Assembly (NCBI GenBank): GCA_964582785.1
Contig: CAZOTT010000001.1
Span: 15,007-79,006, forward strand
Origin: an uncultured Acidobacteriota bacterium
GTDB lineage: Bacteria > Acidobacteriota > Polarisedimenticolia > J045
Reading direction: 5' to 3'
DNA length: 64,000 nucleotides
This document shows positions 1,837-34,023 of this stretch, in pieces; position 1 is the stretch's first letter, and each line of letters starts with the position of its first letter. The notes beneath the pieces were generated by a model. The model saw only the letters and a list, made by a program, of their open reading frames with translations, ran no database searches and was not told where the DNA came from. The position numbers and the translations under genes are program-made.

Positions 1837-1858
1837 CGCCGCCGGTCCCCCGGATGAA

Positions 1859-1888
1859 GCGGGGCGCCGGCCGCCGCCGGCGCCCCGC
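1859..1888. terminator. GC-rich perfect hairpin (12-bp stem, gcggggcgccgg / ccggcgccccgc) between convergent plsC and the porin gene. Probable bidirectional terminator, with no clear U-tract.
   Basis: Inverted repeat read directly from the sequence. Confidence 0.4.
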
Positions 1889-1909
1889 GTCGTGGGAGCG
1901 GTCTCCTGG

Positions 1910-4084
1910 TCAGAAGCTCCTGCTGACCATCACCGAGAGCACGTTGTACCGGCCCGACTCGTCCTCGAGGATCGGGTCGTTGTCGTGGTAGTCGGTCAGC
2001 GTCCAGCCGAGTTCGAGCCCGTACCCGGACGGCAGCCGCCAGCGGGCCCCGAGGTTGAGGTCCCAGGTGCGGACCGAGACGTCCGACAGCTCGTTGACCA
2101 TCTTCCAGTCCCGCGACAGGAAGGAAGCGCCCACCGGGCTGCCGTACGGGGCGAACATGTCCCAGCGGTCCATGCCGCCGGTCATCCGGTTGTACTCGAT
2201 GCCGCCGAAGAGCTGGCCGTTTTCACCGAAGGGGGTACCGAACTCGGTCCCGAGGAAGGTGCCGTCGATCTGGTAGGCGTCCGAGCTTTCATCCCGCCCA
2301 AACTGGGCGGAGGCGAGGGCGCCCGCTCACCCGTTCATCAGCGGGATACACAGGTGTGTCTCCTGGTCCTCCCGCAGCAGGACCCCCGTCACGGTGGTGT
2401 AGAACCGCTCGTTCGGCGTCCACCAGAGGGACGCGCCGACCTCGGCCACGTCGTGGGTCCAGTCGGACACCCGCGTCTGGTCGTTCTGCTCCGAGAGCCA
2501 CTTCCCGTGGAGCGTCAGGGTCGTCTGCTCGGAGGGCACCAGCGTCAGCCGGGTCCGCAGGGCGATCCGGTCCGTGGGCCGGTTCGACAGGTCGGCGATC
2601 CGCCGGCGGTGCAGCTCGAAGTACTGGAGGGACGACCAGGGGAAGTTGGCCGGGTCCGCCACCAGGGCCGGGTCCTCGCCGACCGCGAGGCAGCCGCCCT
2701 TCAGGTTGCGGAACGGGTCGCTGGCCTGGTACCACTCCGCCTCGACCCGGTAGCGGGCGCCGTTCTCGAACCGGCCGAGGAGCTGGGTCCTCAGGGTGTA
2801 CTCCCGGGTGTTGGTCCCGCCACCGTTGTCCACCCGGAAGTTGTCCCGGTCGATGTCCCGGTAGCGCAGGGAGGTCTTCAGGCGGTGGCGCCGGTGTTCC
2901 CCGAAACGCCACACGTACTCCCCGGCCGCGGAGACGACCGTCCGGTCCGCGGCGGACCGGCGGGTCCAGTCGATCTCCACGTCCCGGTCCGCGTAGACGT
3001 CCCGGTAGTAGAGGCCCGCCTGCGGCCCGGCGGAGCCCGGGTACTCCACCACGTCGACGAAGACGTCGTCCGTGTCGACGTTCTCGAGGCGCCCCCGGAG
3101 CGAGAAGGAGTGGGCCTCATCCAGCACGTGGAGCCAGCGTGCCCGGAACGAGTAGTACTTCGCCCGGAGCCCCGTGTGGTCGCTCTCGGCCTTCTGGTAG
3201 GCGGCGGCGGCGTCGAGATGGTCGTGCTCGCCGGTCCAGAAGAGGTGGAGCACGTGGGCGTCCCGGTCATGGCCGGGAACCAGGCCCACCGGCAGGGTCA
3301 CGGGGCCGCCGATGCCGAAGCTCGCCCGGTTGTCGAACACCGGAACCTTCTTCGTGGGGTGGAGCACCTGCTCGAAGACCCGCCGCACCGGGTCGGCGTC
3401 GGCGTCGAAGTTGCTCGAGGTGTACTCGTAGCGCACCCCCCAGTTCGACTTCAGGTAGGCCACCCGGAGGGTGACGTCGTCCATCGTCTGGTCGACGGAG
3501 GCCGACTGGCCGACGATGTGGCAGGTGCGGCAGTGGCCCGCGGAGAGCTGCTGGTGGCTGCCGGACCGGCGCATGTGGCGCGCCAGCAGGGCGAACTCCC
3601 ACGCCCGGTTGTTCACCGGCCGCCAGGCCAGCCGCGCGTGGTCGTCCTCGAACCGGTAGCGGTACCTCGCCCCGGGGTCCATGTCATCGTGGCGGACGAC
3701 CTTGCCGTGCTCGTCCGTCGCGGCGAGGTTCTCCAGCGGATCGTGGGGCAGGTTGTGGACGAAGCGGTTCATGTCCGCCTCGAAGGTGAAGGCATGGGCG
3801 GCGACCAGCTCCAGGTGGTGCCGCTGGTCGTCCGGGTCGAGCAGCTCCATGTCCAGCGACAGGCTGGTGTCGCCGCCGAACCCGGCGTCGAACCAGGCGG
3901 AAAACGCCGCGCTCGACGAGTCCACCTGGTATTCCGCCGCCTTGTTCCGGCTGTTCCGCGCCCGGACCACGTGGGCCCCCACGGCCACCTCACCCGATCC
4001 CCCGCCGTCGTCGGCCGGCACGGCCGGCACGGCGAGCGCCAGGGCGAGGACCGCGAGGAGAACGATCGGCAGTCTGCGTTTCAT
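1910..4084 (-). CDS. MtrB/PioB-family outer-membrane porin of a porin-cytochrome conduit (about 724 aa). The frame is interrupted by an in-frame TGA at 2327-2329. Upstream segment is 2330..4084, downstream segment is 1910..2326.
   Basis: Signal peptide MKRRLPIVLLAVLALALAVPA. Long beta-barrel-like sequence. Both segments are in the same frame with strong GC3 bias. The C-terminal segment ends ...NVLSVMVSRSF with an aromatic terminal residue typical of OMPs. The stop overlaps the 5' side of the mtrA-like gene. Confidence 0.7.
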
Positions 4085-4097
4085 GGGGTGGTCCTCC

Positions 4098-5060
4098 TCA
4101 ACGGGTGAGCGCCCGCCCCTGGCCCACGGTCGACTGGCTCGGGAGATCCGAACCGTGGACGGAGACGTGGCACTGGGTGCACTTGGTCAGGAAGGCGTGC
4201 TTCATGCCGTTCCTGCCGAACGGATTGTCGAAGGTGTCGCCCCCGTAGACGACCTCGGTCTCCTCCGGGCCCGCGAGCCCCGCGTGGAAATGGGCCTCGT
4301 GGCAGGTCAGGCAGATGTAGGGCTCGGTCTGTGCGAGGAGGCGCGGCGCCACCGACCCGTGGGGCTTGTGGCAGATGGTGCAGTCCTCCTCCACCGGCTC
4401 GTGCTGGAAGACGAACGGGCCCCGGTACTGGGGGTGGCACGAGAGGCAGAGATCGTTCTTCCGGAACTCCGTCTTCAGCAGGCCCGGCGTCGTGCCGTGG
4501 GGATCGTGGCAGGACGCGCAGGTCATCTTCCCCTCGGGGACCGGGTGGTGGGAGGGCATCCTCGTCTCGGCCCGCACCTCCGGGTGACAGGAGAAGCACT
4601 TCTCCTCGGGAACCTCCTTCGCCCGGTGCCCCAGCCGGGCCGCCGCCCCGGCCTTCGCCGGGTCGGGATGGATCTCGTGACAGTCGAGGCAGGAAAGCCC
4701 CGCCCGGGCGTGTTCGCTGGCCGGCCAGGCTCCCATGTGGCTGACCGAGGCATGGCACCCGAGGCAGGTCGCGGAATCCTTCGCCGGGTCATCGCCGGGA
4801 AAGTGCCGGATCAGCGCGGGATCGGCCTCCTCCACGTGTTTTTCCGTCGGTCCGTGGCAGGAAGCGCAGGCCCGGGAGAGCCCGAACCAGTCTCCCTGCA
4901 CCAGCTTCCCGTGGGGGGTGGCCGCGAACGACGCCACGAGGTCCTCGTGGCAGTCGGCGCAGGCCTGGCCCGGTGGGTCCGCCGCCCGGCTGGGCGGCCC
5001 GAGGGCCCACAGCCCGACCAGGGCCAGGGCCCCGGCCAGTCCGATGCTGAGGCGTTTCAT
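4098..5060 (-). CDS. MtrA/PioA/MtoA-family periplasmic decaheme c-type cytochrome (320 aa, 10 CXXCH motifs).
   Basis: Signal peptide MKRLSIGLAGALALVGLWALGPPSRA, then CADCH, CASCH, CLGCH, CLDCH, CFSCH, CASCH, CLSCH, CTICH, CLTCH and CTQCH. Size and heme count match MtrA. Sits immediately upstream of the porin on the same strand. Confidence 0.85.
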   Translation of the reverse strand: MKRLSIGLAGALALVGLWALGPPSRAADPPGQACADCHEDLVASFAATPHGKLVQGDWFGLSRACASCHGPTEKHVEEADPALIRHFPGDDPAKDSATCLGCHASVSHMGAWPASEHARAGLSCLDCHEIHPDPAKAGAAARLGHRAKEVPEEKCFSCHPEVRAETRMPSHHPVPEGKMTCASCHDPHGTTPGLLKTEFRKNDLCLSCHPQYRGPFVFQHEPVEEDCTICHKPHGSVAPRLLAQTEPYICLTCHEAHFHAGLAGPEETEVVYGGDTFDNPFGRNGMKHAFLTKCTQCHVSVHGSDLPSQSTVGQGRALTR

Positions 5061-5299
5061 CCGATCTCCCTCCTTGCGCTCCCCCGGGGGAGCGGCTTGC
5101 CCCGGGTTCATCGATTCCCGGGAAGATGCGAACGGACGCGGCCGCCCGGCCGCGGATTTCCGGAGGACACACCCCCGCCTCCGGCCCTCCCGCGGGCCCG
5201 GGGAAGCGGGGCTTTCGCGGCGGGGCGGGCCGCACCGGCCTGCCCGTTGGCGAACAGTCACGTGCGCCTGGAAACGATCACGGTCACGGCTCCTCCGAC

Positions 5300-5400
5300 C
5301 GGGGGGAAACATACCGAACAGTCAGCCGACGGGTCAAGCGCGCTTACTTACTTGCAAGTGGAGGCCGATTCCGGCTAGCCTTGGCCGATTCCACCCCCCG
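5300..5400. promoter_or_regulatory. Divergent regulatory region between the mtrA-like (-) and cbcL-like (+) genes. Contains perfect palindrome ACTTGCAAGT (5350-5359), direct repeat GGCCGATTCC x2 (5363-5372 and 5383-5392) flanking palindrome GGCTAGCC (5373-5380), and a minus-strand candidate sigma70 promoter (-35 TTGACC about 5332-5337, -10 TATGTT about 5308-5313).
   Basis: Locally lower GC. Repeats and palindromes read directly from the sequence. Confidence 0.4.
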
Positions 5401-5537: not shown

Positions 5538-7595
5538 GTGAACCGGAAGATCCGTCCGGGCGGGCGGCAGGGAGTCCTCGCGGGGCTGGCGGCGCTCACG
5601 CTGCTGGCCGCCCTCGCGGGCGTTCCCGCGGTCGCCATCGACGACGACACCTGCCTCGCCTGTCACTCCGACCCCGACGCGCTGTCCGAGGCCGGCGACC
5701 GCGCGAAGGACCTCGTGGTCACCCCCGACTCCCTCGCGGGGTCGGTCCACGAGGGTTTCTCCTGCACGGACTGCCACCAGGACCTGGCTCCCGACGACGC
5801 GGAGATCCCCCACCCGCCGGAACTGCAGCCGGTCGACTGCAGCCAGTGCCACGACGACGTGGCGGAAGGGTTCCACGCCAACTCGGTGCATGCGACCGCC
5901 ATCCGGCCGCGTCCCGGCGCGCGCAGCGCCTGCAGCGCCTGCCACGGGAACCACCACATCCTTGCCGTGGGGGACGCGGAGTCGCCGGTCTCCCGGCAGC
6001 ACGTGGCCGATCTCTGCGCCCGCTGCCACGAACCGGCGGCGGACCACGGCGACCCGGTCAGCCAGTGGAAGGACTCGATCCACGGGCGGGCGGTCCTCCT
6101 CTGGGAGGTCGAGGAGGCCCCGACCTGCGTCGCCTGCCATCCCGCCCACGCAATCCGGCAGCCGGAGGACCCGGCGGCGGCGATCAACCGGCGCCGGGTG
6201 ATGGACACCTGCGGCAACTGCCACCCGAGCGAGCGGAAGGCGGTCCTGCGGGGTGTCCACGGGAAGGCCTGGCAGGAGGGCAACCTGGCGGCGGCCACCT
6301 GCGTCGACTGCCATGGTTCCCACGGCGTCGACCGCCCCGGGGAGCGCGCCTCGACCGTCTACGCCGCCCGGGTCAGCGAGACGTGCGGCAGGTGCCACGA
6401 CGATCCGGACCTCGCCGTGCGGTTCCACCTGCGGCCCGACCGCGTCGCCACCTACCGGCAGTCCTACCACGGCAAGGGAACGGCCTGGGGCTCCCCGGTG
6501 GTCGCGAACTGCTCCTCGTGCCACGGCTACCACGACATCCGCGGCATGAACGACCCGGCCTCGACGATCTACCCGGCCAACCTCAGGGAGACCTGCGGCA
6601 AGGCCGCCTGCCACCCGGGCGCCAGCGAGCAGTTCGTCCGGTTGCCGGTCCACGCCGACCGCTTCTTCATCCCGCCGACGGCGCGCCTCGTCCTCCGCTA
6701 CCTCCGGATGGGCTACATCCTGATCATCTCCCTGACGATCACCTTCATGGTCGTCCACCAGGTCCTGGAAATCCGGGCGATCCTCCGGCTGCGCCGGGAG
6801 ATCCGGGCGGCCGAACGGAGGGGCCACCGCCACCTGGCGACCCTGCCCCCGGTGGAGCGACCGGCGCGGGAACCGCTCTCCCGTTTCGTGACCCGGGACG
6901 GGAAGCACTACGTCATCCGGTGGGACGTCAACCAGGTGGTCCAGCACATCCTCCTCGTGGTCTCCTTCACCACGCTCGTCATCACCGGCTTCCCGCTGGA
7001 GTTCCCCGCCTCCTGGGCGAGCCACCTCGGCAGCCTCGGCCCGGTCCTGTTCGACCTGCGGGGGATCCTGCACCGGGGGGCCGCGATTCTCCTGATCCTC
7101 GTCTCGATCTACCACGTCGGGTGGCTGCTCTTCACGGGCCGCGGCCGGCGGGAACTGTGGGAGCTCGTTCCCCAGCCCCGGCGGTTCCGGCGCAAGCTGG
7201 TGGGCAACCTCCGCTGGTTCCTCGGCCTCGAAAAGGAGCCCCCGCCGGGAGTGCGGTACACCTACCGGGAGAAGCTGGAATACTGGGCCCTGGTCTGGGG
7301 CAACTTCGTCATGATCACGACCGGCATCATCCTCTGGACGGCGCCGCGCTGGCACTACATGGTCGTGGCCGTCGCCCGGCTGGTGCACAGCTACGAGGCG
7401 CTTCTCGCCCTGCTGGCGATCCTCGTCTGGCACATGATCGGCGCCCACCTCAAGCCGGGAATCTTCCCGATGAACCCGACCTGGCTCACCGGCGGTCTCG
7501 ACATCGAGGCGTTCCGCGAGGAGCACGCGGAAGAGTACGCGAAGATGGTGGCCTGGTACGGGTTCGATCCGATGACCGAGGAGGTGGGCCGATGA
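5538..7595 (+). CDS. CbcL-like inner-membrane quinol:cytochrome oxidoreductase. N-terminal periplasmic multiheme cytochrome c (about 10 CXXCH plus one CX4CH) fused to a C-terminal FdnI/HydC-type dihaem cytochrome b membrane domain.
   Basis: GTG start with RBS AGGGAGGAG. Signal peptide. CLACHS, CTDCHQ, CSQCHD, CSACHG, CARCHE, CVACHP, CGNCHP, CVDCHG, CGRCHD, CSSCHG, CGKAACH. The C-terminal domain has TM helices with conserved His (HQVLEI, VVQHILLVV, HRGAAILLILVSIYHVGW, VHSYEALLALLAILVWHMIGAH). Confidence 0.8.
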   Translation: MNRKIRPGGRQGVLAGLAALTLLAALAGVPAVAIDDDTCLACHSDPDALSEAGDRAKDLVVTPDSLAGSVHEGFSCTDCHQDLAPDDAEIPHPPELQPVDCSQCHDDVAEGFHANSVHATAIRPRPGARSACSACHGNHHILAVGDAESPVSRQHVADLCARCHEPAADHGDPVSQWKDSIHGRAVLLWEVEEAPTCVACHPAHAIRQPEDPAAAINRRRVMDTCGNCHPSERKAVLRGVHGKAWQEGNLAAATCVDCHGSHGVDRPGERASTVYAARVSETCGRCHDDPDLAVRFHLRPDRVATYRQSYHGKGTAWGSPVVANCSSCHGYHDIRGMNDPASTIYPANLRETCGKAACHPGASEQFVRLPVHADRFFIPPTARLVLRYLRMGYILIISLTITFMVVHQVLEIRAILRLRREIRAAERRGHRHLATLPPVERPAREPLSRFVTRDGKHYVIRWDVNQVVQHILLVVSFTTLVITGFPLEFPASWASHLGSLGPVLFDLRGILHRGAAILLILVSIYHVGWLLFTGRGRRELWELVPQPRRFRRKLVGNLRWFLGLEKEPPPGVRYTYREKLEYWALVWGNFVMITTGIILWTAPRWHYMVVAVARLVHSYEALLALLAILVWHMIGAHLKPGIFPMNPTWLTGGLDIEAFREEHAEEYAKMVAWYGFDPMTEEVGR

Positions 7596-8488: not shown

Positions 8489-8863
8489 GTGCGCAAGATC
8501 CTGTTCCTGCTGACCGTGGTGGCCGCGCTCGGGCTCGTCGCCGTTGCCGCCGAGATCCCGAAGGACAAGCAGGTCCTGCACTTCAAGACGATGATGGGCA
8601 CGGTGACGTTCAGCCACCGGGCCCACGTCGACCGGGCGCCGAACGGCTGCGTCGACTGCCACCACAAGACCAAGCCGGGGGAGATGCCCCAGCCCTGTTC
8701 CGCCTGCCACCAGAAGAAGAAGGCCGAGGGGAAGAAGCTCAAGCTCAAGGATGCGGTCCACAAGCGGTGCTGGGGCTGCCACCAGAAGAACCTGGACGCC
8801 GGCAAGAAGGGCGGCCCGGTCAAGAAGGACTGCAAGGTCTGCCACGTGCGCAAGAAGAAGTAA
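8489..8863 (+). CDS. Small periplasmic tetraheme cytochrome c3-family protein (124 aa).
   Basis: GTG start with RBS AAAAAGGAGGAAACA. Signal peptide. CVDCHH, CSACHQ, CWGCHQ, CKVCHV. Lys-rich. Confidence 0.8.
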   Translation: MRKILFLLTVVAALGLVAVAAEIPKDKQVLHFKTMMGTVTFSHRAHVDRAPNGCVDCHHKTKPGEMPQPCSACHQKKKAEGKKLKLKDAVHKRCWGCHQKNLDAGKKGGPVKKDCKVCHVRKKK

Positions 8864-9168: not shown

Positions 9169-12100
9169 TCAGAAGAGCTTGAGGACGAGGAACATCGCCT
9201 CCACGTCCCCCTCCACCGGGTCCAGGTCGCTCCGGAGGGCGTACCCGACGTCGAAGCGCAGGATCGTCTCCCACGGGCCGAGGAAGCTGGCCGCGACCCC
9301 GACGCCGGTGTGGTCCGTCATCCCGGGAGCGATCCGGGGATCGTGCACCCGGGCGTGGTCCAGGACCGCGTCGAAGCGCACGACGTCCGAGATGTTGAAC
9401 GAGTACTTCACCTGGGCCAGGAGCCCGTGGTCGTACCGGATGCCCGACCCGCCGAAGCCCCGCAGCCGGTCCCCCGACAGGAACCCGAAGGTGAACGACG
9501 AGAACCGGTCCAGGTCGTCGCCGGCCTGGTACCTGGCGGACACCTCGATCTTCTGGAAGAGGGGCAGGAACCAGCTCTTCTGGACGCCCGCCCACCAGGT
9601 CGTCCAGTCCTTCGTCCGCGCCACCTCCTCCCGGGTGGCCACCGCGCCCTCCGGGCCCCAGGGAAGCCAGTCGGACCGGTCGTGCCACGAGGCCCCGGTC
9701 ATCAGGCTCCATCCCTTCCGGTCGAAGGCCAGTTCCAGTTCCTCGATCCGCTCCCAGTGGTCCGCCGGCACCACGAAGCGCCGCGTGTCCTCGTGCCGCT
9801 GGTAGACCACCCGGTCCATCTCTCCCATTGCCCGCAGCTTGACGAAGCTTCCCAGGGGAACGCCCAGGTTCACCCGCAGGGCCTGGCGCAGGCGCTGCAG
9901 CCGGTGCGACTCGATTTCCTCGCCCCGGACGTAGTCCTTGTCGGTGGAAGGGTAGCCGACGGCGTTCAGCGTCACGCCGAGGTCGAGCCGTCGGCCCAGG
10001 ACACTGGGGTCGGAATAGGTGACGTTGGCGAACGCGCCGGCGAAGAAGACGTTCAGGATCTTCTTCCGGCCGAAGAGATTGATGTTCGTGTAGTTGACGC
10101 CCGCGAGCGGGATCACGCCCTCCGTGCCCTCGTCGTACAGGGCGCCCCCCAGCAGGAACAGCTGGGTCGGGTCACCCTTCTCGTTGACGACCCGGCGCCC
10201 GTCCTTCGTCTTCGAGAGCCACTTGAACCCCTCCGGCGTGTCCCGGAGCATCTGCCGGTCGGAGGCGTACGTGCGCGCCCGCAGGTCGGCGAACCCGGGG
10301 TCGTTGATCTCCGGGGGCCCGAAGGTGATCTGGCGCAGCACGACGAGGTTCGACCCGTTCACGGTGTAGATCTGCTGGCCGGAGAGCTCCTCGAGAAGCC
10401 AGTAGGTGGTCCCGTCCGGTCCCTCCCAGGGACGGAACAGCTGGGTCTGCTCGTCGCTGATCGCCGGCGGGGTCAGCTCGGTCTGGACCGACGACACCTT
10501 GACCAGGGCGCCGGTCGCCTGGTCGATCCACGCGCGCCCCCGGTAGAGGGATGCGCCCGGCGACAGCGGCTGGAAGCGGAGCCGCCAGCAGCGGCGCCCT
10601 TCCACCTCCTCCTCGCCCTCGAGCCGGTACCGGTAGCGCCGGTCCAGGTTCAGGTCGAGGGGCAGCGCGACCACCCGGTCCTTCGTCACCAGCGGGATCT
10701 CCGGGATCTTCTTCCACTTCAGTTTCACGCCGTCGAAGAACGTTTCGCGGATCGCCCACTCCCCGCCGGTTTCCGGGTCCCAGAACCAGTCGGCGTGCAT
10801 CTCGATCTCGAAGGTCCCGGTGACCTGGGCATACCGCACGCGGAACTTGATCCATCCCTCCCGGTGCACGTTCCGCAGGCGATCGTCCTGGAACGAGCGG
10901 AACCGCTGGTGGAAGGCGATGATCTCGTCGGGCGTCACCCGGTGGACGCCCGCGACTTCCTCCCGCTCCTCGGCGAGGTCGATTCCCGGCGAGACCCGGA
11001 GCCGGTTGACGAGCAGCATCCGGGGCCGGCGGGCGAGGGGCGCCTCGACCCGCACGTGGGCATCGTCCAGGGGCACCGCCCGCAGGAAGCGCTCCGTCCC
11101 GGTGAGCGGGTCCACGGCCCGGTAGCCCCGCCGCATCGCCTTCTCGAAGACGAACGCGGCCCGGGCGTCCCCGGGGACCCCGGGACGGCCCGCCCAGTAG
11201 AAGAGGACCTCCCGGAAGCTCCGGTCATCGAAGAAACGGACCCAGCGGACCGGCACCGGGCCCGGCTGGACCTCGATTCCCGCCCCCTTCCGCGGAGAGA
11301 GCCCGAGCCCCGGCCCGAGGACCCGGGCGATCGCCTCGAGGGCCCCCGCGGTGGCGCGGGCCGCCGCCGCGTCCTGTTCCGGCAACCGCAGCAGGGTGGC
11401 GTCCGCGCCCGCGGCCAGCAGGTCGAGGGCCCGGGCCAGGACGTCGTCCGAGGCGGCTTCCCCCCGGGTCTCCGCCCGCGCATCGGCCAGGACCAGCAGG
11501 GCCGCCCCCGGGTCGAGGGTCCGGAGTTCCTCCCGCAGGGCGCTCACGGCCTTCCCCGCGTCCCGGCCCACCGGGAGGACGAGGGTCACCCCGTCCACGT
11601 AGGGGGCCAGGTCCCCCGTGGCCTTCCAGGCGCGGGCCAGCAGGTCCACCTCGGGGCCCTCGTGAACGACCACGTCCACCGCGGCGGCCGGGTCCTCCCC
11701 GTGAATCGTGACCGAGGCGGCCTTGATCTCGTAGGCGGCGAGGCGGGCGTCCCCCGCGGTTCCGGGGGCGGGCAGGAAATCCGCCAGGAGCCACGCGGCC
11801 ACCTCCCCCTTCAGTTCCCGGGCCCCCGCCCGCAGCATCCGCAGCCAGTCCCTCCGCCGGGCCTCGAGGCCGGTGCCCGGAACGGCGGGGGACCCGTGGA
11901 CCAGCACCGCCACCCGCGCCCCCCGGGACCGCTGGGCCCGGACACGCTCGACGAGGGGAGCCGGGTCCGGCGTTCCGCCCCGGGGAAACAGGTCCCGGCA
12001 CCGGGTCTCGACGACCACCCAGGGGACACCGTCTCCCGGGGCGGCCTCCCCGTGGCCGCGGGCCGCCGGCGTGATCCCGCTGCCGGCCTCGACCCAGCCG

Positions 12101-12243
12101 AGGGCGTGGACCGGAACCGCCGGCTGGACCAGGCCGGTGACCGCCGGGCGGGCGGGGCCGGCCGCGTGGACGGCCCCCGGGAGGAGCAGGGCCGGGAAAA
12201 GGATCGGGAGGACGCGGAGCAGCAGCTGGCGGGTCGCCGTCAT
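9169..12243 (-). CDS. Large (1024 aa) secreted outer-membrane protein of unknown function. Signal peptide, Ala-rich N-domain, central LolA-like domain, and C-terminal putative beta-barrel ending in Phe.
   Basis: Start MTATRQLLLRVLPILFPALLLPGAVHAAG with RBS GAGGAGAA. C-terminal ...VEAMFLVLKLF. Central segment WIKFRVRYAQVTGTFEIEMHADWFWDPETGGEW...YRGRAWIDQATGALVKV resembles LolA-like lipoprotein-carrier folds. The rest of the 1520-aa track ORF upstream looks non-coding. Confidence 0.6.
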   Translation of the reverse strand: MTATRQLLLRVLPILFPALLLPGAVHAAGPARPAVTGLVQPAVPVHALGWVEAGSGITPAARGHGEAAPGDGVPWVVVETRCRDLFPRGGTPDPAPLVERVRAQRSRGARVAVLVHGSPAVPGTGLEARRRDWLRMLRAGARELKGEVAAWLLADFLPAPGTAGDARLAAYEIKAASVTIHGEDPAAAVDVVVHEGPEVDLLARAWKATGDLAPYVDGVTLVLPVGRDAGKAVSALREELRTLDPGAALLVLADARAETRGEAASDDVLARALDLLAAGADATLLRLPEQDAAAARATAGALEAIARVLGPGLGLSPRKGAGIEVQPGPVPVRWVRFFDDRSFREVLFYWAGRPGVPGDARAAFVFEKAMRRGYRAVDPLTGTERFLRAVPLDDAHVRVEAPLARRPRMLLVNRLRVSPGIDLAEEREEVAGVHRVTPDEIIAFHQRFRSFQDDRLRNVHREGWIKFRVRYAQVTGTFEIEMHADWFWDPETGGEWAIRETFFDGVKLKWKKIPEIPLVTKDRVVALPLDLNLDRRYRYRLEGEEEVEGRRCWRLRFQPLSPGASLYRGRAWIDQATGALVKVSSVQTELTPPAISDEQTQLFRPWEGPDGTTYWLLEELSGQQIYTVNGSNLVVLRQITFGPPEINDPGFADLRARTYASDRQMLRDTPEGFKWLSKTKDGRRVVNEKGDPTQLFLLGGALYDEGTEGVIPLAGVNYTNINLFGRKKILNVFFAGAFANVTYSDPSVLGRRLDLGVTLNAVGYPSTDKDYVRGEEIESHRLQRLRQALRVNLGVPLGSFVKLRAMGEMDRVVYQRHEDTRRFVVPADHWERIEELELAFDRKGWSLMTGASWHDRSDWLPWGPEGAVATREEVARTKDWTTWWAGVQKSWFLPLFQKIEVSARYQAGDDLDRFSSFTFGFLSGDRLRGFGGSGIRYDHGLLAQVKYSFNISDVVRFDAVLDHARVHDPRIAPGMTDHTGVGVAASFLGPWETILRFDVGYALRSDLDPVEGDVEAMFLVLKLF

Positions 12244-12393
12244 CGGGTTCTCCTCGCGGTACCTTCCGGGCAGCCGTGGACGGCCACGGCAGAGGTGGTA
12301 GCTTACCGCCTCTTGGATGCGCGCCCGTACCCCGGGGATACGTTTCCGCCCGCCGCTGCGGGTACCATCCTTTCCGAGGAGGAGGTGCGCGCC

Positions 12394-13191
12394 ATGCCCG
12401 GTCGCCCGGTCGTCACGTTCCTCACCGACTTCGGTCTCGCCGACGGCTACGTCGGCGCGATGAAGGGGGCCCTCCTGCGGGCCGCGCCGGACGTGCTGCC
12501 GGTGGACCTCACCCACGACGTTCCCCCCCACGACGTCCTGGCCGGGGCGTTCCTGCTCGCCGGCGCGGCGCGGTGGTTCCCGCCGGGAACGGTTCACGTG
12601 GCGGTGGTGGACCCGGGGGTCGGAACCCCCCGCCGGGGCCTCGCCGCCCGGGCGGGGGACTGGTTCTTCGTCGCCCCGGACAACGGGCTGCTGGAGCTCG
12701 TCCTGCGGGAACAGCCCGCGGCCGAGGTCCGCCGGATCGCCAACCCCGACCTGTGCAACCCGGATCCGCACCCGACCTTCCACGGCCGCGACGTGTTCGC
12801 CCCGGTGGCCGGGGCCCTGGCCCGGGGGGTCTCCCTCGCGGAGATCGGGCCCGCGGTGGACGACCCGGTGCGGCTCCCGCTGCCGGAGGTCCGGGCGGAG
12901 GAGCGGGGGCTGGCGGTCCCGGTCCTGCACGTCGACCGGTTCGGGAACGTCGTCCTCGGGGTCCGCGCGGGGGAGCTGCGGGCCCGGCTGGGGGACGGCC
13001 CGTGGCGCATCGTCGAGCCGACCCCGGCGGGGCCGGTCTTCCCCGCCCGCACCTACGGGGAGATCCCCCCCGGTTCCCTCGCGCTCCTCGCCGGGTCGTC
13101 GGGCTGGGCGGAACTCGCCCTCGACCGGGCCCCGGCGGCGGACCGGCTCGGGGTCGCTCCCGGTCACAGGGTCCTGATATCGAGGAGGTGA
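12394..13191 (+). CDS. S-adenosyl-L-methionine hydroxide adenosyltransferase (DUF62, SAM hydrolase/halogenase superfamily).
   Basis: MPGRPVVTFLTDFGLADGYVGAMKGALL...VHVAVVDPGVGT...FFVAPDNGLL. RBS GAGGAGGAGG. This is the only real part of the 1810-aa track ORF 7759..13191. Confidence 0.8.
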   Translation: MPGRPVVTFLTDFGLADGYVGAMKGALLRAAPDVLPVDLTHDVPPHDVLAGAFLLAGAARWFPPGTVHVAVVDPGVGTPRRGLAARAGDWFFVAPDNGLLELVLREQPAAEVRRIANPDLCNPDPHPTFHGRDVFAPVAGALARGVSLAEIGPAVDDPVRLPLPEVRAEERGLAVPVLHVDRFGNVVLGVRAGELRARLGDGPWRIVEPTPAGPVFPARTYGEIPPGSLALLAGSSGWAELALDRAPAADRLGVAPGHRVLISRR

Positions 13192-13673
13192 CGGCAGGAC
13201 AGGAGGTACCAGCCCCCCTGCCGCTCGAGGGGGATGAACTTCCGGTCGTCGTTCAGGAGGTCGAGGAGCCGGCGGCGGCTTTCCGGCATCTCGATCCAGA
13301 CCACGCCGTGCCAGTGCCGCTCGTCCGGGGGCAGGGAGGCCAGGGTGAGGACGGTGTCCTCCCGGGCGAGCCCCTCGTGATCGTCGCTGAGCCCGGTGTC
13401 CACCGGCCCGGGCACGCGGATCGCCACGATCCGGCCCTTGTTCAGGAGGTGCCCTCCCTCCGGGGTGTCCAGCGGGAGGAACGGGTCCGGGGAAGCCAGC
13501 AGGTCCACGACCCGCTCCCGCCCCTCGTGCAACCCGGTCCGGGGCAGCACGTAGAAGTTCCCGGCGAGGTTTCTTCCGCCCTCGAGGAGCACCTCGACGG
13601 GTACCGTCTCCTTCGGAATCCGCCAGATCTCCCGGCCGGCGCCGGGCACGTCCCGCGTCGTTCCCTGGGTCAT
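13164..13673 (-). CDS. Hypothetical protein (169 aa). Convergent with the DUF62 gene and overlaps it by 28 nt.
   Basis: MTQGTTRDVPGAGREIWRIPKETVPVEVLLEGGRNLAGNFYVLPRTG.... GC3 bias. No family recognised. Confidence 0.45.
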   Translation of the reverse strand: MTQGTTRDVPGAGREIWRIPKETVPVEVLLEGGRNLAGNFYVLPRTGLHEGRERVVDLLASPDPFLPLDTPEGGHLLNKGRIVAIRVPGPVDTGLSDDHEGLAREDTVLTLASLPPDERHWHGVVWIEMPESRRRLLDLLNDDRKFIPLERQGGWYLLSCRHLLDIRTL

Positions 13674-13826
13674 GCCGCGCTCCCGGGGCCCCCGGGCCCC
13701 TCCCGGGGGAAGATAGGTTCGCCGGCACCACGCCGCACCCCGTTCGCTTCCCGCCGGTTTGCTCCCCCCAGCACCGGGACCTATCGTCCCCCCGGGAGGA
13801 GCGTGTCCTCCCGGCGGGGACCCAGG

Positions 13827-14963
13827 ATGAGCCTCTCGGGACAGCTCTCCACGATGAACCTGGCCGACCTGCTCCAGTGGGTGGCCGGTTCGGCGAAGAC
13901 CGGGCGCCTCGATTTCCGGCGGGGCCCGGTGGTCAAGGAGGTCTACGTCCAGGAGGGGCTGATCGTCGGGGCGGCCTCGAACCAGCCCACCGAGATGCTC
14001 GGCCACCACCTGGTCGCCCGGGGGAGGCTGACGGAAGAGCAGCTCCGGGCCGCGATCCTGGCCCGGCGGGAGGGGGACGAGTTCCTCGGCCAGGTCCTGG
14101 TCCGCCTCGGGTTCGTCAGCCAGGACGACCTGCTCCGGGCCCTCGCCGAGCGGACCGAGGAGATCATCTACTCCCTCTTCGAGTGGGAGGACGCGGACTT
14201 CCACTTCGAGCCGGGAGCCCGCCCGGGGCCGAAGGTCGTCCTGATCGCCCTCCCCGTGGACCAGGTCCTGCTCCGGGGCGTGCATCGCCACGACGAGATG
14301 GAACGGATCCGCCAGGTCTTCCCCTCCGGGAGGGTCGTGCTGTCCCGCACCGGCGTCCCCGGCCCCCGGGAAATCGTCGAGCACCCCCTCGCCCGGCGGA
14401 TCCTCGAGGCGATCGACGGCCGCCGCACGATCGACGAGCTGGCCTTCCACGTCCACGCCAGCCCCTTTCCCGTGATGAAGTTCCTCTTCGAGGCGCACCG
14501 CCTCGGCCTCGTCGCGATCGAGTCCCTCGAGGGTCCTCCCCTCGCCCTCGTCACCGGCGAGGCGCCCGATGCCGAGCTGGCCGGGCTGACCGGGCCCGCC
14601 CGGCTCGCCGCCGCGCGGGAGCACCTGGAGAAGGGAGACCCGGAAACGACCCTGACCCTCCTCGAGGACGAGGGGGGCGCCGACCCGGAAACCCGGGACC
14701 TCCGCCGCCAGGCGGAGGAGGCGTTCCTGGAGAAGGTCTACGGAGAGGAGTTTCCGCGCGGGGCCGTCCCGCAGCTGGCCCGCCCGCTCCACGAGCTGAC
14801 CGGCGAGGCGCTGCGCCCGGAGGAGTTCTTCCTCCTGTCCCGCATCGACGGAAACGTCAGCCTCGGGGACATCATCGAGATCGCCCCCCTCCAGGAGGTG
14901 GAAACCGTGCGGGCCCTCCGCCGCCTGGTGCGCCGGGGGCTCGTCCGGCTTCCTTCGCCGTGA
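13827..14963 (+). CDS. DUF4388 domain-containing protein (PATAN-like, myxobacterial/delta-proteobacterial type).
   Basis: MSLSGQLSTMNLADLLQWVAGSAKTGRLDF... matches the characteristic DUF4388 N-terminus. 379 aa. Confidence 0.7.
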   Translation: MSLSGQLSTMNLADLLQWVAGSAKTGRLDFRRGPVVKEVYVQEGLIVGAASNQPTEMLGHHLVARGRLTEEQLRAAILARREGDEFLGQVLVRLGFVSQDDLLRALAERTEEIIYSLFEWEDADFHFEPGARPGPKVVLIALPVDQVLLRGVHRHDEMERIRQVFPSGRVVLSRTGVPGPREIVEHPLARRILEAIDGRRTIDELAFHVHASPFPVMKFLFEAHRLGLVAIESLEGPPLALVTGEAPDAELAGLTGPARLAAAREHLEKGDPETTLTLLEDEGGADPETRDLRRQAEEAFLEKVYGEEFPRGAVPQLARPLHELTGEALRPEEFFLLSRIDGNVSLGDIIEIAPLQEVETVRALRRLVRRGLVRLPSP

Positions 14964-15036
14964 TCCATCCGCGCCCGGCAGCGGGCAAGGGGGACTCACC
15001 GGATACAATAAAGCATTTATCTTCACAGGTTATGCG

Positions 15037-15066
15037 TTGACACTCGATCTGACGTCCCCGTAAGAT
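15037..15066 (+). promoter_or_regulatory. Candidate sigma70 promoter inside an AT-rich island. -35 TTGACA, 18-nt spacer, -10 TAAGAT. Sits about 55 nt upstream of the 19-heme cytochrome gene.
   Basis: Sequence ...acaataaagcatttatcttcacaggttatgcgTTGACActcgatctgacgtccccgTAAGATcc. An unusually AT-rich stretch in a 70% GC genome. Confidence 0.5.
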
Positions 15067-15119
15067 CCCGCCACGATGCCGCCCCGGTACGCGGCCGGGG
15101 CTCCGTCGGGAGAACGCCC

Positions 15120-17918
15120 ATGGGAGCGCCACGCACGTCTCGCCTGCCGGCCATCCTCCTCCTCGTTCTCGGTTCCCTGGTGGCCTTTCCACCGGCCGCC
15201 CGGGGCCAGGACGCCGACGAATGCCTTTCCTGCCACGAGGACCCGGACCTGACCGGCGAACGGGACGGGAAGGAGATCCCGGTCCACGTGGACCCGGATG
15301 CCTTCCGGGAGTCCGTCCACGGGGACCTCGCCTGCGTGGCGTGCCACCGGGACCTCGAGGGAACGGACTACCCGCACCGGGAGTCCACCGCTCCCGTCGA
15401 CTGCGGCCCGTGCCACGACGAGCAGGCGGAGGAGTACCGGCAGACGATCCACGGGATCCGGGCGGCGAAGGGAGACCGGCTGGCGCCCACCTGCGCCACC
15501 TGCCACGGCAGGCACGACATCCTTCCCGCGAGCAACCCCCGCTCCCGCACCGCGATCATGAACATCCCCCTCCTGTGCGGGGAGTGTCACCACGAGGGCA
15601 GTCCCGTCTCCCGCACCCACGACATTCCCGAGGAACGGATCCTGGAGAACTACTCCCAGTCGATCCACGGCGAGGGGCTCTTCCGCAAGGGCCTCACGGT
15701 GACGGCGGTCTGCACCTCCTGCCATACCTCCCACCGGATCCTGCCCCACACGGACCCCCGGTCCTCCATCCATCCGCACAACGTGGCGCGGACCTGCACG
15801 AAGTGCCACGCCCGGATCGAGGACGTCCACAAGAAGGTGATCGAGGGGCGGCTGTGGGAAGAGGCCCCGCACAAGATTCCCGCCTGCACGGACTGCCACT
15901 CTCCCCACAGGATCCGCAAGCCGAGTCCCGTCCAGGGCGCCGCCAACCGGGACTGCTTCCGCTGCCACTCGAACCGCGACCTGTACATGGTCCGGAACGG
16001 GGAGCGGATCTCCCTGTACGTGGACGAGGCCGCCTGGAACGCCTCCCGCCACTCGGGGGTGGCCTGCGCCCAGTGCCACACCGAGGTGAACTCGGCGGCG
16101 AAGCGGCCCTGCTCGACGATCCGCTCACCGGTGGACTGCTCGATCTGCCATGCCGAGGTGGTCCGCCAGTACGAGGAAAGCGCCCACGGCCGGCTCGCGG
16201 CGAGCGGCGATCCCGATGCGCCCCGGTGCCTGACCTGCCACGATCCCCACGCGACGGAGGGACAGCACGTCCCCACTTCCAATACCTACCCGCGGAACGT
16301 CCCGGACCTCTGCGGCAGGTGCCACGCCCGGGGCGGGGTCGCCGACCGTCGCCTCCGCACCCCGATCGACATCGTGGCCAGCTACCGGCAGTCGATCCAC
16401 GGCAAGGGCCTGCTGGAAAGCGGCCTCGTCGTCACGGCGACCTGTACCGACTGCCACACGGCGCACCACGTTCTCCCCCCGGACGACCCGGACTCCTCGG
16501 TGAACCCGTCCCTGGTGGCGGACACCTGCGGCAACTGCCACCGGGGGATCGAGGAGGCCTTCCGCCGCTCGGTCCACTGGCCCGGCAACACCCGGACCGA
16601 CCGCCGGCTTCCCACCTGCGAGGACTGCCACACCTCCCACCAGATCGCCCGGACCGACAGGCCCGGTTTCCGCACCTGGATGATGGAGCAGTGCGGCAAC
16701 TGCCACCACGACGAGGCCGACACCTTCTTCGAAACGCCCCACGGCAAGGCGTCCCAGCTCGGCGACGAGCGGGTGGCCAAGTGCTTCGACTGCCACGGCA
16801 CCCACGACATCCTGCCGGTGGACGATCCCCGCTCCACCCTCAGCCCGACCCACGTCGTCCAGACCTGCCGCAAGTGCCACGAGGGAGCCCACCTACGGTT
16901 CGCCGGCTACCTGAGCCACGCCACCCACCACGACCCGAAGAAGTATCCCTGGCTGTTCTGGACCTTCTGGGGCATGACCTCGCTGCTGGTCGGGACCCTG
17001 GTGTTCTTCTCTCTCCACACGGTCCTGTGGCTGTGGCGTCTCTGGCGGACCCGGGAGCAGTGGCGCCCGCTGAAGGCCCGGGCGGCCCGGGCGACGAAGT
17101 TCTACCGCCGGTTCGACGCCCGCCAGCGGGCGATGCACCTGGTGATGATGCTCAGCTTCTTCACCCTGGCCGTCACCGGGATGACGCTGAAGTTCTCCTA
17201 CATGACCTGGGCCCAGGTCCTCTCGCGGCTGCTCGGCGGCTTCGAGGTGACCTCGGTGCTGCACCGGATCGCGGCGGTCGTCCTGATCTCGGACTTCCTC
17301 TACCACCTCCACGACCTGAACCGCCGGCGGCGGGAGGAGGGCAGGAGCTGGCTCCAGCTCGTCTTCGGACCGGGCTCGATGATGTTCACCGTGAAGGATA
17401 TCCGGGACTTCATCGGCACGGTGAAATGGTTCCTGGGAGCGGGCCCGCGACCGCGGTACGGCCGGTTCACCTACTGGGAGAAGTTCGACTACTTCGCCGT
17501 GTTCTGGGGCGTGTTCGTCATCGGCTCCACCGGGCTGATCCTCTGGTTCCCGGAGTTCTTCACCCGCTTCCTGCCCGGGTGGGCGGTGAACGTGGCGACG
17601 ATCATCCACTCCGACGAGGCCCTGCTGGCGGTCGGGTTCATCTTCACCATCCACTTCTTCAACACGCATTTCCGGCCGGACAAGTTCCCGATGGACCCCG
17701 TCATCTTCACCGGGCGCGTCCCCCTCGAGGAGCTGCGGCACGACAAGCCGGAGGAGTACGAGGAGGCGAAGGCCCGCGGCACGCTGGAAGAACGCCTCGT
17801 CGACCCGATCCCGGCGCCGGTGGAGCGGGCGTTCCGCGTCTTCGGCTTCACGATGCTCGGCATCGGCCTCGTCCTGATCGCGTTCATCGTCTACACGATG
17901 CTGTTCGGCTACCGCTGA
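15120..17918 (+). CDS. Giant CbcL-like fusion (932 aa). Periplasmic cytochrome c domain with 19 CXXCH motifs fused to a C-terminal FdnI/HydC-type cytochrome b membrane domain.
   Basis: Signal peptide MGAPRTSRLPAILLLVLGSLVAF. 19 CXXCH motifs counted (CLSCHE ... CRKCHE). The C-terminal TM domain with conserved His (HLVMMLSFFTLAV, HRIAAVVLISDFLYHLH, HSDEALLAVGFIFTIHFF) is homologous to the C-terminus of the 5538..7595 gene. Confidence 0.85.
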   Translation: MGAPRTSRLPAILLLVLGSLVAFPPAARGQDADECLSCHEDPDLTGERDGKEIPVHVDPDAFRESVHGDLACVACHRDLEGTDYPHRESTAPVDCGPCHDEQAEEYRQTIHGIRAAKGDRLAPTCATCHGRHDILPASNPRSRTAIMNIPLLCGECHHEGSPVSRTHDIPEERILENYSQSIHGEGLFRKGLTVTAVCTSCHTSHRILPHTDPRSSIHPHNVARTCTKCHARIEDVHKKVIEGRLWEEAPHKIPACTDCHSPHRIRKPSPVQGAANRDCFRCHSNRDLYMVRNGERISLYVDEAAWNASRHSGVACAQCHTEVNSAAKRPCSTIRSPVDCSICHAEVVRQYEESAHGRLAASGDPDAPRCLTCHDPHATEGQHVPTSNTYPRNVPDLCGRCHARGGVADRRLRTPIDIVASYRQSIHGKGLLESGLVVTATCTDCHTAHHVLPPDDPDSSVNPSLVADTCGNCHRGIEEAFRRSVHWPGNTRTDRRLPTCEDCHTSHQIARTDRPGFRTWMMEQCGNCHHDEADTFFETPHGKASQLGDERVAKCFDCHGTHDILPVDDPRSTLSPTHVVQTCRKCHEGAHLRFAGYLSHATHHDPKKYPWLFWTFWGMTSLLVGTLVFFSLHTVLWLWRLWRTREQWRPLKARAARATKFYRRFDARQRAMHLVMMLSFFTLAVTGMTLKFSYMTWAQVLSRLLGGFEVTSVLHRIAAVVLISDFLYHLHDLNRRRREEGRSWLQLVFGPGSMMFTVKDIRDFIGTVKWFLGAGPRPRYGRFTYWEKFDYFAVFWGVFVIGSTGLILWFPEFFTRFLPGWAVNVATIIHSDEALLAVGFIFTIHFFNTHFRPDKFPMDPVIFTGRVPLEELRHDKPEEYEEAKARGTLEERLVDPIPAPVERAFRVFGFTMLGIGLVLIAFIVYTMLFGYR

Positions 17919-24371: not shown

Positions 24372-26105
24372 ATGACCCGAGCCGCCCGGTGGGCCATCGT
24401 CCTCGTCCTGCTGTTCGTCCTCGCCAGTTTCGCCACCCTGGTGGTCGCCGCCTGGACCCTCGGGGGGGGCCTGTCCTTCCACCGCGGGAACGTCCTGGAG
24501 GTCCGGCTCGACCGGCCGGTGGTGGAAACCGCCCCGCGGGACCGGCTGTCCCGCCTGCTGGGACGGGAGCCCCTCGTGCTGCGGGATCTCGTGGCGGCGA
24601 TCGACGCCGCGCGGAAGGACGACCGCATCGAGGGCCTCTACCTGGAGCTGGACGACACCTCCCTCGGGTGGGCCCAGGGCGAGGAACTCCGGGCGGCGAT
24701 CGCCCGCTTCCGCGCCGCCGGCAAGTGGACCGTCGCCTGGACGGCGAGCTTCGGCGAGCTGGGCGGCGGCACCGGCGCCTACTGGCTGGCCAGCGCCTGC
24801 CGGCAGGTCTACCTCGCCCCCCCGGGGGACGTGGGCCTGACCGGGCTCCGGGTGGAGACGCCCTTCATCCGGGGCCTCCTGGACCGGCTCGGGATCGTGC
24901 CCCAGTTCGGCCAGCGGAAGGAGTACAAGAACGCGGTCAACACCTACACCGAGACCGGCTACACGAAGCCGCACCGGGAAGCCCTCGAGGCCCTCCTCGA
25001 CGTGCTGTACGGGGAACTTGTCGACGGGATCGCCACCGGCCGGGAACTGACCCCGGACCGGGTCCGCGAGCTGATCGACGGGGGCCCCTGGACCGGGGAC
25101 GAGGCGAAGGAGAACGGCCTGGTCGACGACCTGCTCTACCGGGACCAGGTGATGGACCTGCTCGAGAAGAAGGCGGGGCGGAAGGACCCCCTGGAACCGG
25201 TCGAGCGGTACCTCGGGCGGCGCCGGCCGTTCGGCTCCGGCGGCACGAAGGTCGCGATCGTCTACGCCGTGGGCGCGATCCGCCGCGGCGAATCGGGCAC
25301 CGATCCGCTCTACGGCCGCTCGATGGGCTCGGACACGATCATCCGGGCCCTGCGCCGGGCCCGGGAGGACGACTCGATCGACGCGGTGGTCCTGCGGGTC
25401 GACTCCCCCGGGGGTTCCTACGTCGCGTCCGACCTGATCCGGCGCGAGGTCGTGCGCACCGCGAAGGAGAAGCCGCTCCTGGTCAGCATGGGGAACTACG
25501 CCGCCTCGGGGGGCTACTTCATCTCGATGCAGGGTCCCTCGATCCTCGCCGACCGGACGACGATCACCGGCTCGATCGGCGTCTTCGGCGGAAAGTTCGT
25601 CACCCGGGACTTCTGGGAGCAGAAGCTCGGCATCCGCTTCCCGGGGATCCAGCGGGGCCGCCACGCGGACCTGATGTCGACGCAGGTGGAGTGGGACGAG
25701 GACGGCTGGGCCCGGATGAACGCCCTCCTCGACCGGATCTATGACGACTTCGTGACGAAGGCGGCGCAGGGACGGGGCATGACCTGGGACGAGCTGGAGC
25801 CGCTCGCCCACGGGCGGGTGTGGGCCGGCAAGGACGCCCGGGAGCGGAAGCTGGTCGACGACATCGGCGGCCTGCGGGAAGCGCTCCGGCAGGCCTGCAG
25901 CAGGGCGGGGGGCGACCCGGACCGGGGCTGCCGGGTCGAGATCCTGCCCCGGCCGAAGAACTTCCTCGAGCGGCTCCTCTCCCGGGACCGGGACGAGGTC
26001 CTGCTCGGCCCGGAGGGGCGCCGGGCCCTGGCCCTCGTGCGCCTGCTGACCAGCCCCGCCCCGGAGGCCCTCCTGCTCGATCCCGACCTGCCGCGCATCC
26101 GCTGA
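24372..26105 (+). CDS. sppA: Signal peptide peptidase SppA (protease IV, 67K type).
   Basis: N-terminal TM helix. Two ClpP/crotonase-like halves (...GLYLELDDTSLGWAQ... and ...VVLRVDSPGGSYVASD...MGNYAASGGYFISM...). Confidence 0.8.
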   Translation: MTRAARWAIVLVLLFVLASFATLVVAAWTLGGGLSFHRGNVLEVRLDRPVVETAPRDRLSRLLGREPLVLRDLVAAIDAARKDDRIEGLYLELDDTSLGWAQGEELRAAIARFRAAGKWTVAWTASFGELGGGTGAYWLASACRQVYLAPPGDVGLTGLRVETPFIRGLLDRLGIVPQFGQRKEYKNAVNTYTETGYTKPHREALEALLDVLYGELVDGIATGRELTPDRVRELIDGGPWTGDEAKENGLVDDLLYRDQVMDLLEKKAGRKDPLEPVERYLGRRRPFGSGGTKVAIVYAVGAIRRGESGTDPLYGRSMGSDTIIRALRRAREDDSIDAVVLRVDSPGGSYVASDLIRREVVRTAKEKPLLVSMGNYAASGGYFISMQGPSILADRTTITGSIGVFGGKFVTRDFWEQKLGIRFPGIQRGRHADLMSTQVEWDEDGWARMNALLDRIYDDFVTKAAQGRGMTWDELEPLAHGRVWAGKDARERKLVDDIGGLREALRQACSRAGGDPDRGCRVEILPRPKNFLERLLSRDRDEVLLGPEGRRALALVRLLTSPAPEALLLDPDLPRIR

Positions 26106-33902: not shown

Positions 33903-34023
33903 GCCATGGAATCCCGCCCCGGTCGGCGGTTTCCGGGGGAAGGGGGACGACGGCGAGGGGGGACGGGTGCTAGCATGGCGGGCAGCCGGACCGAGACCAT
34001 CCCCCCACCGGAGGGTGCGCCCG

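Follow-up and report, generated by a model that had tools for sequence, protein, structure and literature searches.

A probable selenocysteine codon in a gene of the GSU2204/OmcL family

The 64,000-nucleotide stretch of DNA analysed here (the window; contig CAZOTT010000001.1 of assembly GCA_964582785.1, positions 15,007 to 79,006) stems from an uncultured Acidobacteriota bacterium and carries, on its minus strand, a gene for an outer-membrane beta-barrel of the GSU2204/OmcL family that is interrupted by an in-frame TGA at 2329..2327. This TGA, which is followed by a hairpin resembling a bacterial selenocysteine insertion sequence (bSECIS), is very probably a selenocysteine (Sec) codon. The family is already catalogued as selenoproteins, and the gene in the window is a mis-annotated, Acidobacteriota-type member of it.

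From the ATG at 4084, 585 codons precede the TGA. The frame then runs without a stop over 138 further sense codons (2326..1913), ends in the C-terminus YNVLSVMVSRSF and closes with a TGA at 1912..1910, so that 724 residues are encoded when the UGA at codon 586 is read through. The GC content at third codon positions (GC3) of the continuation is 0.94 in the porin frame, the two alternative frames having 0.60 and 0.47. The Pfam family OMP_b-brl matches this C-terminal part with E = 1.6e-5 and 25.6 bits, under its gathering score of 28.7. Comparison with two homologous loci, L011 and L001, gave ratios of non-synonymous to synonymous substitution rates (dN/dS) of 0.26 and 0.43, respectively, for the 138 codons after the TGA and of 0.15 and 0.31 for the 100 codons before it, which indicates that the part downstream of the TGA is under purifying selection. 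A preliminary description of this DNA had reported a porin open reading frame (ORF) at 4084..2330 that stops at the TGA at 2327-2329, an open frame to 1910 with a ...MVSRSF end and a third-position GC bias in the continuation, all of which were found again on rereading the sequence. Its conclusion that the segment past the TGA encodes part of the porin agrees with the GC3 and dN/dS values and with the full-length homologues described below. The database entry for the product is unnamed and cut to 585 aa; the database protein P0001, of 585 aa, shows 100% identity over the aligned part, with one substitution at aa 474.

In a search in which Cys stood in for Sec, the protein matches the NCBIfam model NF041027, 'GSU2204 family CXXCH-containing (seleno)protein', at 409.9 bits (cutoff 350, E = 2e-122). 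The alignment covers aa 12-585 of the protein and profile positions 2-580 of 580; since the last profile position is reached at aa 585, the curated 'part 1' model extends precisely up to the Sec. In common with GSU2204 (OmcL) and its neighbour GSU2203 (OmcK), the gene in the window has a single CXXCH, the UGA at the end of 'part 1' with a C-terminal continuation, and a GSU2203-family decahaem cytochrome gene immediately upstream. No family-defining feature was found lacking in this copy, whose host is not a Geobacter but an Acidobacteriota with a genome of ~70% GC, the closest named relatives of which are uncultured Acidobacteriota metagenome-assembled genomes (MAGs).

Two reviews include the GSU2204 family in their lists of selenoproteins without giving a function for it (PMC9312934, PMC13188914). 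The study that the reviews cite for the family (Zhang & Gladyshev 2008) names no porin or outer-membrane family in its main text, and the original report could not be traced; a preprint of one of the papers by Haft does not deal with the family, and Peng et al. 2016 contains nothing on Acidobacteria. GSU2203 and GSU2204 are known from elsewhere as OmcK and OmcL, a porin:cytochrome conduit expressed in bacteria partnering with anaerobic methanotrophic archaea (ANME), in a study that handles OmcL as a plain porin (PMC10553843), and as genes induced in Geobacter on haematite and magnetite (PMC4070692). Selenocysteine is mentioned in neither of these two reports.

Conservation of the UGA

A word-indexed search with the read-through protein returned only four clusters, annotated at 565-589 aa and covering the first ~80% of the query. 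The contigs of these four clusters, three Acidobacteria MAG contigs from a genome scan, seven very divergent representatives and one 90%-identical metagenome copy provided the loci that were read at the DNA level. L011 was the only locus that the metagenome scan added, and the divergence of the broad alignment A3 made it unsuitable as a scan seed. In all 15 distinct loci, which span ~20-90% protein identity, the same aligned position holds TGA and never TAA or TAG, and the frame past it is open to an aromatic C-terminus wherever the contig permits. In the first loci read, the TGA is preceded by ...IP[LV][MF]xG and followed by A[AG]GL..., and the protein ends in ...S[KR][SR]F.

A hidden Markov model (HMM) search with the N-terminal alignment against 1.84 billion representatives gave 374 matches at E < 1e-3. 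The 150 matches listed, together with three proteins from the word-indexed search, make up a set of 153 representatives of 50%-identity clusters. Among these, 122 of the 153 end at the site of the TGA, as ...[FMYW]xG with x mostly D, H or N, while the remainder are mostly contig-end fragments, nine being full length. Two of the full-length proteins carry Cys in the UGA column, namely P0018 (725 aa, ...IPVLEG-C-GGGI) and P0047 (723 aa, ...IPVIEG-C-GAGI), and the seven others, which are more distant, have other residues there. Sec and Cys forms thus stand at 122 : 2 among the 153 listed, a set that is biased in that its query profile came from Sec forms. P0047 is named 'GSU2204 family CXXCH-containing (seleno)protein [Acidobacteriota bacterium]' by NCBI. 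The comparison of orthologous porins at this position, which the preliminary description had proposed as a check, accordingly returned TGA in every locus read and Cys in two relatives.

Gene callers split the loci, and separate downstream ORFs of 87-142 aa are found in many of them. The called starts of these ORFs lie 12-150 nt further on and vary among loci, whereas the conserved peptide begins at the codon directly after the TGA (A-[AG]-G-L...), where neither a conserved start codon nor a conserved ribosome-binding site is present. Two loci show irregularities of their own. In L005 (JAAUSW010000019.1), a frameshift that lies ~60 nt upstream of locus position 4027, or ~20 codons ahead of the Sec codon, and is probably an assembly error causes the annotated protein P0004 to end differently, and the C-terminal extension of L013 contains a masked N run.

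A conserved hairpin after the UGA

The preliminary description had also noted a small hairpin 3' of the UGA. It is present as described, and its agreement with the bSECIS model and its covariation identify it as SECIS-like. The core consists of CCGCCC (2310..2305), AGTTT (2304..2300) and GGGCGG (2299..2294), and eight pairs form over 2311..2293. As quoted in PMC13188914, the bSECIS model comprises an apical loop of 3-9 nt above an upper stem of 4-16 pairs; a G at the first or second position of the loop with a G or U after it; a distance of 16-37 nt from the UGA to the loop; and a minimum free energy of at most -7.5 kcal/mol. The hairpin in the window agrees with the model on all four points, with the loop AGUUU (GUU if the A-U pair closes) on a stem of 6-8 pairs.

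Hairpins at this place were compared over 14 loci. The apical loop begins 22 nt after the UGA in 13 of the 14 and 19 nt after it in L009; its sequence is AGUUU, AGUCU, AGUUC, AGGUU or AGUAU. Both closing C-G pairs are the same throughout, the remaining stem positions vary, and the fold energies range from -8.3 to -15.0 kcal/mol. In the 14-sequence alignment, 91.8% of the stem cells are paired, vs. 69.0 +/- 3.2 in shuffles, none of 500 shuffles being as high. Changes on both sides occur at 4 of 7 stem pairs, and doubly changed cells number 20 vs. 6.0 +/- 1.9 in shuffles (0/500). When the 3' partner was slid by 1-3 columns as a control, pairing amounted to 29-61%. In several cases of compensation, a synonymous change in one arm of the stem (CGG to AGG, Arg; GGG to GGT, Gly) goes with a non-synonymous one in the other arm, a pattern as expected of an RNA constraint within a coding sequence.

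Predicted fold and position of the redox residues

An AlphaFold (AF2) model was obtained for the Cys-form relative P0018 with a 105-sequence alignment, and positions in the window protein were mapped onto it via alignment A2. The model (mean pLDDT 90.2, pTM 0.86) contains 26 long strands, and its best match in the PDB is MtrB of the Mtr complex (6R2Q_B, E = 3.9e-23, TM 0.68/0.75). Turns after even-numbered strands are 2-5 residues long, while every long loop follows an odd-numbered strand; because such barrels usually have short periplasmic turns and long extracellular loops, the long-loop side was taken as extracellular. The CXXCH (aa 185-189) maps to the tip of an unusually long hairpin of strands 7-8 on the long-loop side, the His110 motif maps to the preceding long loop, and Sec586 (Cys583 in P0018) is placed between the long strands 21 and 22, in a flexible loop of 11 residues modelled with low confidence. 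Counting of strands would thus make the CXXCH, the His110 motif and Sec586 all extracellular.

Alignment A2 shows no variation in the C, C and H columns of the CXXCH and A3 hardly any, and exactly one CXXCH is present in 104 of 105 near-full-length truncated representatives. In A2, H110, L112 and D115 are likewise invariant and H114 is nearly so, and His110 is a candidate for the distal haem ligand. Cys579 sits 7 residues before Sec586 in the window protein, a spacing that recurs in 55 of the 122 truncated representatives. The objection raised in the preliminary description, that a selenocysteine in this porin would have no redox partner residue, is contradicted by the invariant CXXCH and by this Cys.

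Alternative explanations for the UGA

The preliminary description had left open whether the TGA is a recent nonsense mutation (making the gene a pseudogene), a sequencing error or a recoding site. Nothing beyond the presence of a stop codon inside a coding signal favours a mutation, or a fault of sequencing or assembly, at 2327-2329. The same TGA recurs in independent assemblies and samples at ~20-90% protein identity, 122 of the 153 listed representatives end there, and the part past it is under purifying selection. Since the TGA is found in all 15 loci and is followed by an open, conserved frame with low dN/dS, this explanation can be dismissed as having a vanishingly small probability, which leaves the recoding site of those options. 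We found no support for an organism-wide reassignment of TGA to a standard amino acid, to which we give next to no credence. TGA terminates the porin gene itself (1912..1910), the cytochrome gene (4100..4098) and the gene ending at 26103-26105, and the genetic code is therefore not reassigned, TGA being a normal stop elsewhere in the window.

Translation could also stop at the UGA, with a second, small protein supplying the last five strands in trans to complete the barrel. The annotated downstream ORFs of 87-142 aa in many loci would fit such a split barrel, and orthologues that end at the TGA with a separate gene downstream were the arrangement that the preliminary description had set against a single coding region. 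The arrangement proved to be apparent only, as the conserved peptide starts right after the TGA, where conserved start codons and ribosome-binding sites are lacking, and the starts that were called are inconsistent. Moreover, the stop is always TGA, the C-terminal fragment would be without a signal peptide, and the Cys-form and other full-length relatives are single polypeptide chains. We therefore regard the split barrel as extremely improbable.

Programmed readthrough without selenium, in which the hairpin would slow termination and a near-cognate tRNA (Trp, Cys or Arg) would be inserted at the UGA, accounts equally well for the open frame and for the conservation of both TGA and hairpin, and Sec machinery was not found in the parts of the 64-kb window scanned for it. 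The hairpin, however, matches the specific bSECIS geometry and the G-[U/G] loop rule, the TGA-less relatives nearest to the Sec forms carry Cys, and the curators at NCBI model the family as a selenoprotein. We know of no established bacterial mechanism of dedicated, hairpin-driven UGA readthrough of this kind, and we consider it very unlikely here. The preliminary description had ranked an error or plain readthrough above selenocysteine, a ranking that the conserved TGA, the covarying hairpin and the Cys-form relatives reverse.

A number of observations nevertheless weigh against selenocysteine or against the interpretation built on it. ARAGORN detected no tRNA-Sec in the 64 kb, the domains of selA, selB and selD are absent from the large ORFs scanned in the window, and the window contains no second selenoprotein candidate; the lack of Sec machinery says little, because the window is only 64 kb of the genome. 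As a single sequence, the 60 nt past the UGA fold no better than shuffles (z = -0.62), and a lone hairpin in DNA of ~70% GC proves nothing; the significance of the hairpin derives from the comparative evidence and not from the single-sequence fold. Rfam gave no match to the hairpin, either for the whole window at gathering thresholds or for 2150-2500 at E <= 10, and the distant locus L010 has a different and weaker hairpin (-6.4 kcal/mol). In the literature searched, there is no report of selenium incorporation for any family member, nor of an experiment on haem attachment. Finally, the topology was taken from the Cys-form relative P0018, which is only 23% identical to the window protein, and strands 7-8 lie roughly opposite strands 21-22 around the barrel.

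Features of the porin operon and its surroundings

The coordinates of the features are compiled in Table 1.

Table 1. Features of the OmcL-type gene and its upstream partner in the window, listed in the direction of transcription.
Feature	Position	Strand	Basis
GSU2203/OmcK-family decahaem c-type cytochrome, upstream partner	4098..5312	-	NF041028, TIGR03508, ten CXXCH
GGAGGA ribosome-binding site, 7 nt 5' of the porin ATG	4092..4097	-	Directly 3' of the cytochrome stop 4100..4098
OmcL/GSU2204-type outer-membrane barrel, complete gene	1910..4084	-	Translation; NF041027; homologues aligned full length
N-terminal 585 codons, the whole protein in database annotation	2330..4084	-	P0001 and cluster members, all 585 aa
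Predicted signal peptide, aa 1-24, MKRRLPIVLLAVLALALAVPAVPA	4013..4084	-	Sequence reading; cleavage site inferred
HNLPHDPL motif, aa 110-117, candidate distal haem ligand (His110)	3734..3757	-	Loop after strand 5; conservation
CXXCH motif C185-R-T-C188-H189, putative covalent haem c site	3518..3532	-	Alignment and model mapping
In-frame UGA, very probably read as selenocysteine, residue 586	2327..2329	-	Same column in 15/15 loci; Cys in P0018 and P0047
C-terminal 138 codons, predicted strands 22-26, beta-signal ...MVSRSF	1913..2326	-	GC3, dN/dS, strand mapping from the P0018 model
SECIS-like hairpin, 8-pair stem, apical AGUUU	2293..2311	-	Fold -13.9 kcal/mol; covariation in 14 loci
Perfect 13-pair GC hairpin just past the true porin stop	1859..1888	-	Fold; between convergent genes (plus-strand acyltransferase gene ends at 1836)

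The product of the upstream gene matches NF041028 at 343 bits (cutoff 325) and TIGR03508, the DmsE family of DmsE/MtrA decahaem cytochromes, at 225.3 bits (cutoff 192.2). Its ORF has 404 codons, of which the family model aligns from residue 116 only, and homologues are mostly 313-336 aa long; the true start of the cytochrome is probably internal to the ORF. A sigma-70-like match at 5337..5308 overlaps the nominal start. The order of cytochrome and barrel gene is also present in L001, L003-L005, L009, L010 and L013-L016, where the orphan C-terminal ORF comes next. In the window, the porin unit consists of two genes, with a convergent acyltransferase gene on one side and a divergent multihaem/cytochrome-b gene on the other, and two-gene units are likewise found in L009, L010 and L013-L016. 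The comparison indicates that the porin is co-transcribed with the OmcK-family cytochrome. The 83-nt segment that holds the hairpin past the porin stop (1830-1912, minus strand) folds with -50.1 kcal/mol (z = -2.46), and the transcript may end at the hairpin, which has no T-run and so was not called in the terminator scan. ARAGORN called a tRNA-Gln (anticodon CTG) at 2384..2457 on the minus strand, within the coding sequence of the porin and just upstream of the UGA; with an Rfam tRNA score below threshold and a fold z of +0.71, this call is almost certainly spurious.

Around the porin operon lies an electron-transfer island with genes at 5538..7595, 8489..8863 and 15012..17918, all on the plus strand. 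Two large proteins of the island carry 10-11 and 19 CXXCH fused to a C-terminal domain like the b-type cytochrome subunit of formate dehydrogenase or NiFe hydrogenase, and may be quinol-linked cytochromes of the inner membrane; a small tetrahaem cytochrome of the c3/c7 type is encoded as well. Further afield, we noted a strongly coding ORF of 1587 codons at 9169..13932 (minus strand, GC3 0.86) with no Pfam match at E <= 1e-5, a 1096-aa ORF at 33229..36516 (plus strand) with radical SAM and class I methyltransferase domains, and a predicted protease of 1621 aa at 43695..48560 (minus strand) that combines a gingipain-like peptidase C25 domain and its propeptide with a proprotein-convertase P-domain and a MAM-like domain.

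Two other same-frame TGA junctions, at 26103..26105 and 50883..50885, were considered as recoding sites and rejected, since they separate ordinary adjacent genes, the downstream ones having their own starts and ribosome-binding sites. One junction precedes a gene with a metallo-beta-lactamase fold, and the other lies between a methyltransferase gene and, downstream of it, an apparent acyl-CoA dehydrogenase gene. When TGA between frames of high GC3 was looked for more widely, shadow frames only were returned.

Comparison with known conduits and selenoproteins

MtrB of the Shewanella MtrCAB complex (6R2Q chain B) shares with the OmcL-type protein the 26-strand barrel, as modelled for P0018, a length of ~700 aa and a decahaem partner of the MtrA/DmsE type, and the barrel would similarly sheathe its decahaem cytochrome. 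Sequence identity in the structural match of P0018 is only ~12%. The Pfam family MtrB_PioB (PF11854) matches the window protein weakly and N-terminally, over aa 46-231 only (25.4 bits vs. a gathering score of 23), and TIGR03509 (cutoff 240) does not match it; P0018 scores 23.4 bits with that model. MtrB is not known to have a CXXCH or Sec. Unlike MtrCAB, the operon in the window includes no gene for a surface decahaem cytochrome of the MtrC/OmcA type. In Cyc2 of iron oxidisers, the haem domain is N-terminal to a smaller barrel, and neither a decahaem partner nor Sec is known. Cyc2 is, like the protein described here, an outer-membrane barrel with a single CXXCH haem site of its own (PMC8406198).

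A selenoprotein in a haem-based respiratory cluster with a porin has been described in Geobacter sulfurreducens, where the pentahaem cytochrome c MccSep of the ExtKL/MccSep system acts as polysulfide reductase (PMC13510729). Its UGA, too, was once annotated as a split between two genes, and in both proteins Sec follows Gly (...SIPDG-U in MccSep, ...IPLMNG-U in the window). For MccSep, a catalytic Sec next to a Cys-ligated haem was demonstrated experimentally (PMC13510729). In contrast to the OmcL-type protein, MccSep is a periplasmic multihaem cytochrome according to its authors and not a beta-barrel (PMC13510729), and no sequence relationship between it and OmcL was found.

Proposed mechanism and implications

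In the mechanism that we propose, the apical loop with its G-U, 22 nt past the UGA, would recruit SelB-GTP-Sec-tRNA(Sec) while the ribosome holds the UGA in the A site, and the UGA would be decoded as Sec, as in bacterial Sec insertion. The protein would then be exported by its signal peptide through the Sec secretion pathway, and one haem c would be attached at C185-x-x-C188-H189 in a Ccm-dependent manner. By means of its C-terminal ...SRSF signal, the barrel would be inserted by BAM into the outer membrane around the decahaem cytochrome. Where electrons leave the conduit, the selenol could serve as a residue that is redox-active or close to the haem, and Cys579 is its possible partner. Haem and selenol may act together at the outer exit, where no MtrC-type partner is encoded; MccSep is the nearest precedent, with no homology claimed (PMC13510729).

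A more far-reaching interpretation, which we consider doubtful, is that OmcL is not a passive sheath and that its own covalently bound haem and the selenol of the neighbouring extracellular loop make up a site of catalysis or gating where the conduit opens to the outside, so that OmcL would be a surface-exposed haem-selenium reductase, in analogy to the Cys-haem/Sec site of MccSep. If so, possible substrates would be, for example, sulfur or polysulfide, selenite and mineral-bound acceptors, and the site would stand in for the absent surface cytochrome of the MtrC type. The protein would then represent an experimentally uncharacterised kind of outer-membrane beta-barrel selenoenzyme, and a haem-selenium site would also be the reason why Sec forms outnumber Cys forms among the representatives listed.

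The gene with its probable Sec codon is a real, full-length component of a conduit and not a pseudogene. Public protein sets cut the family at the Sec in nearly every lineage and turn the C-terminal strands into orphan ORFs; surveys of extracellular electron transfer that use such calls therefore see a barrel without its last five strands and its beta-signal. Taking the literature on electron transfer and that on selenoproteins together leads to the testable picture of an outer-membrane conduit whose assembly would depend on the supply of selenium and which would have its own haem site and a selenol on its outer face. As the family is widespread in uncultured Acidobacteriota and in bacteria of the Desulfuromonadota type, the availability of selenium could limit electron transfer to minerals or between species in those groups.

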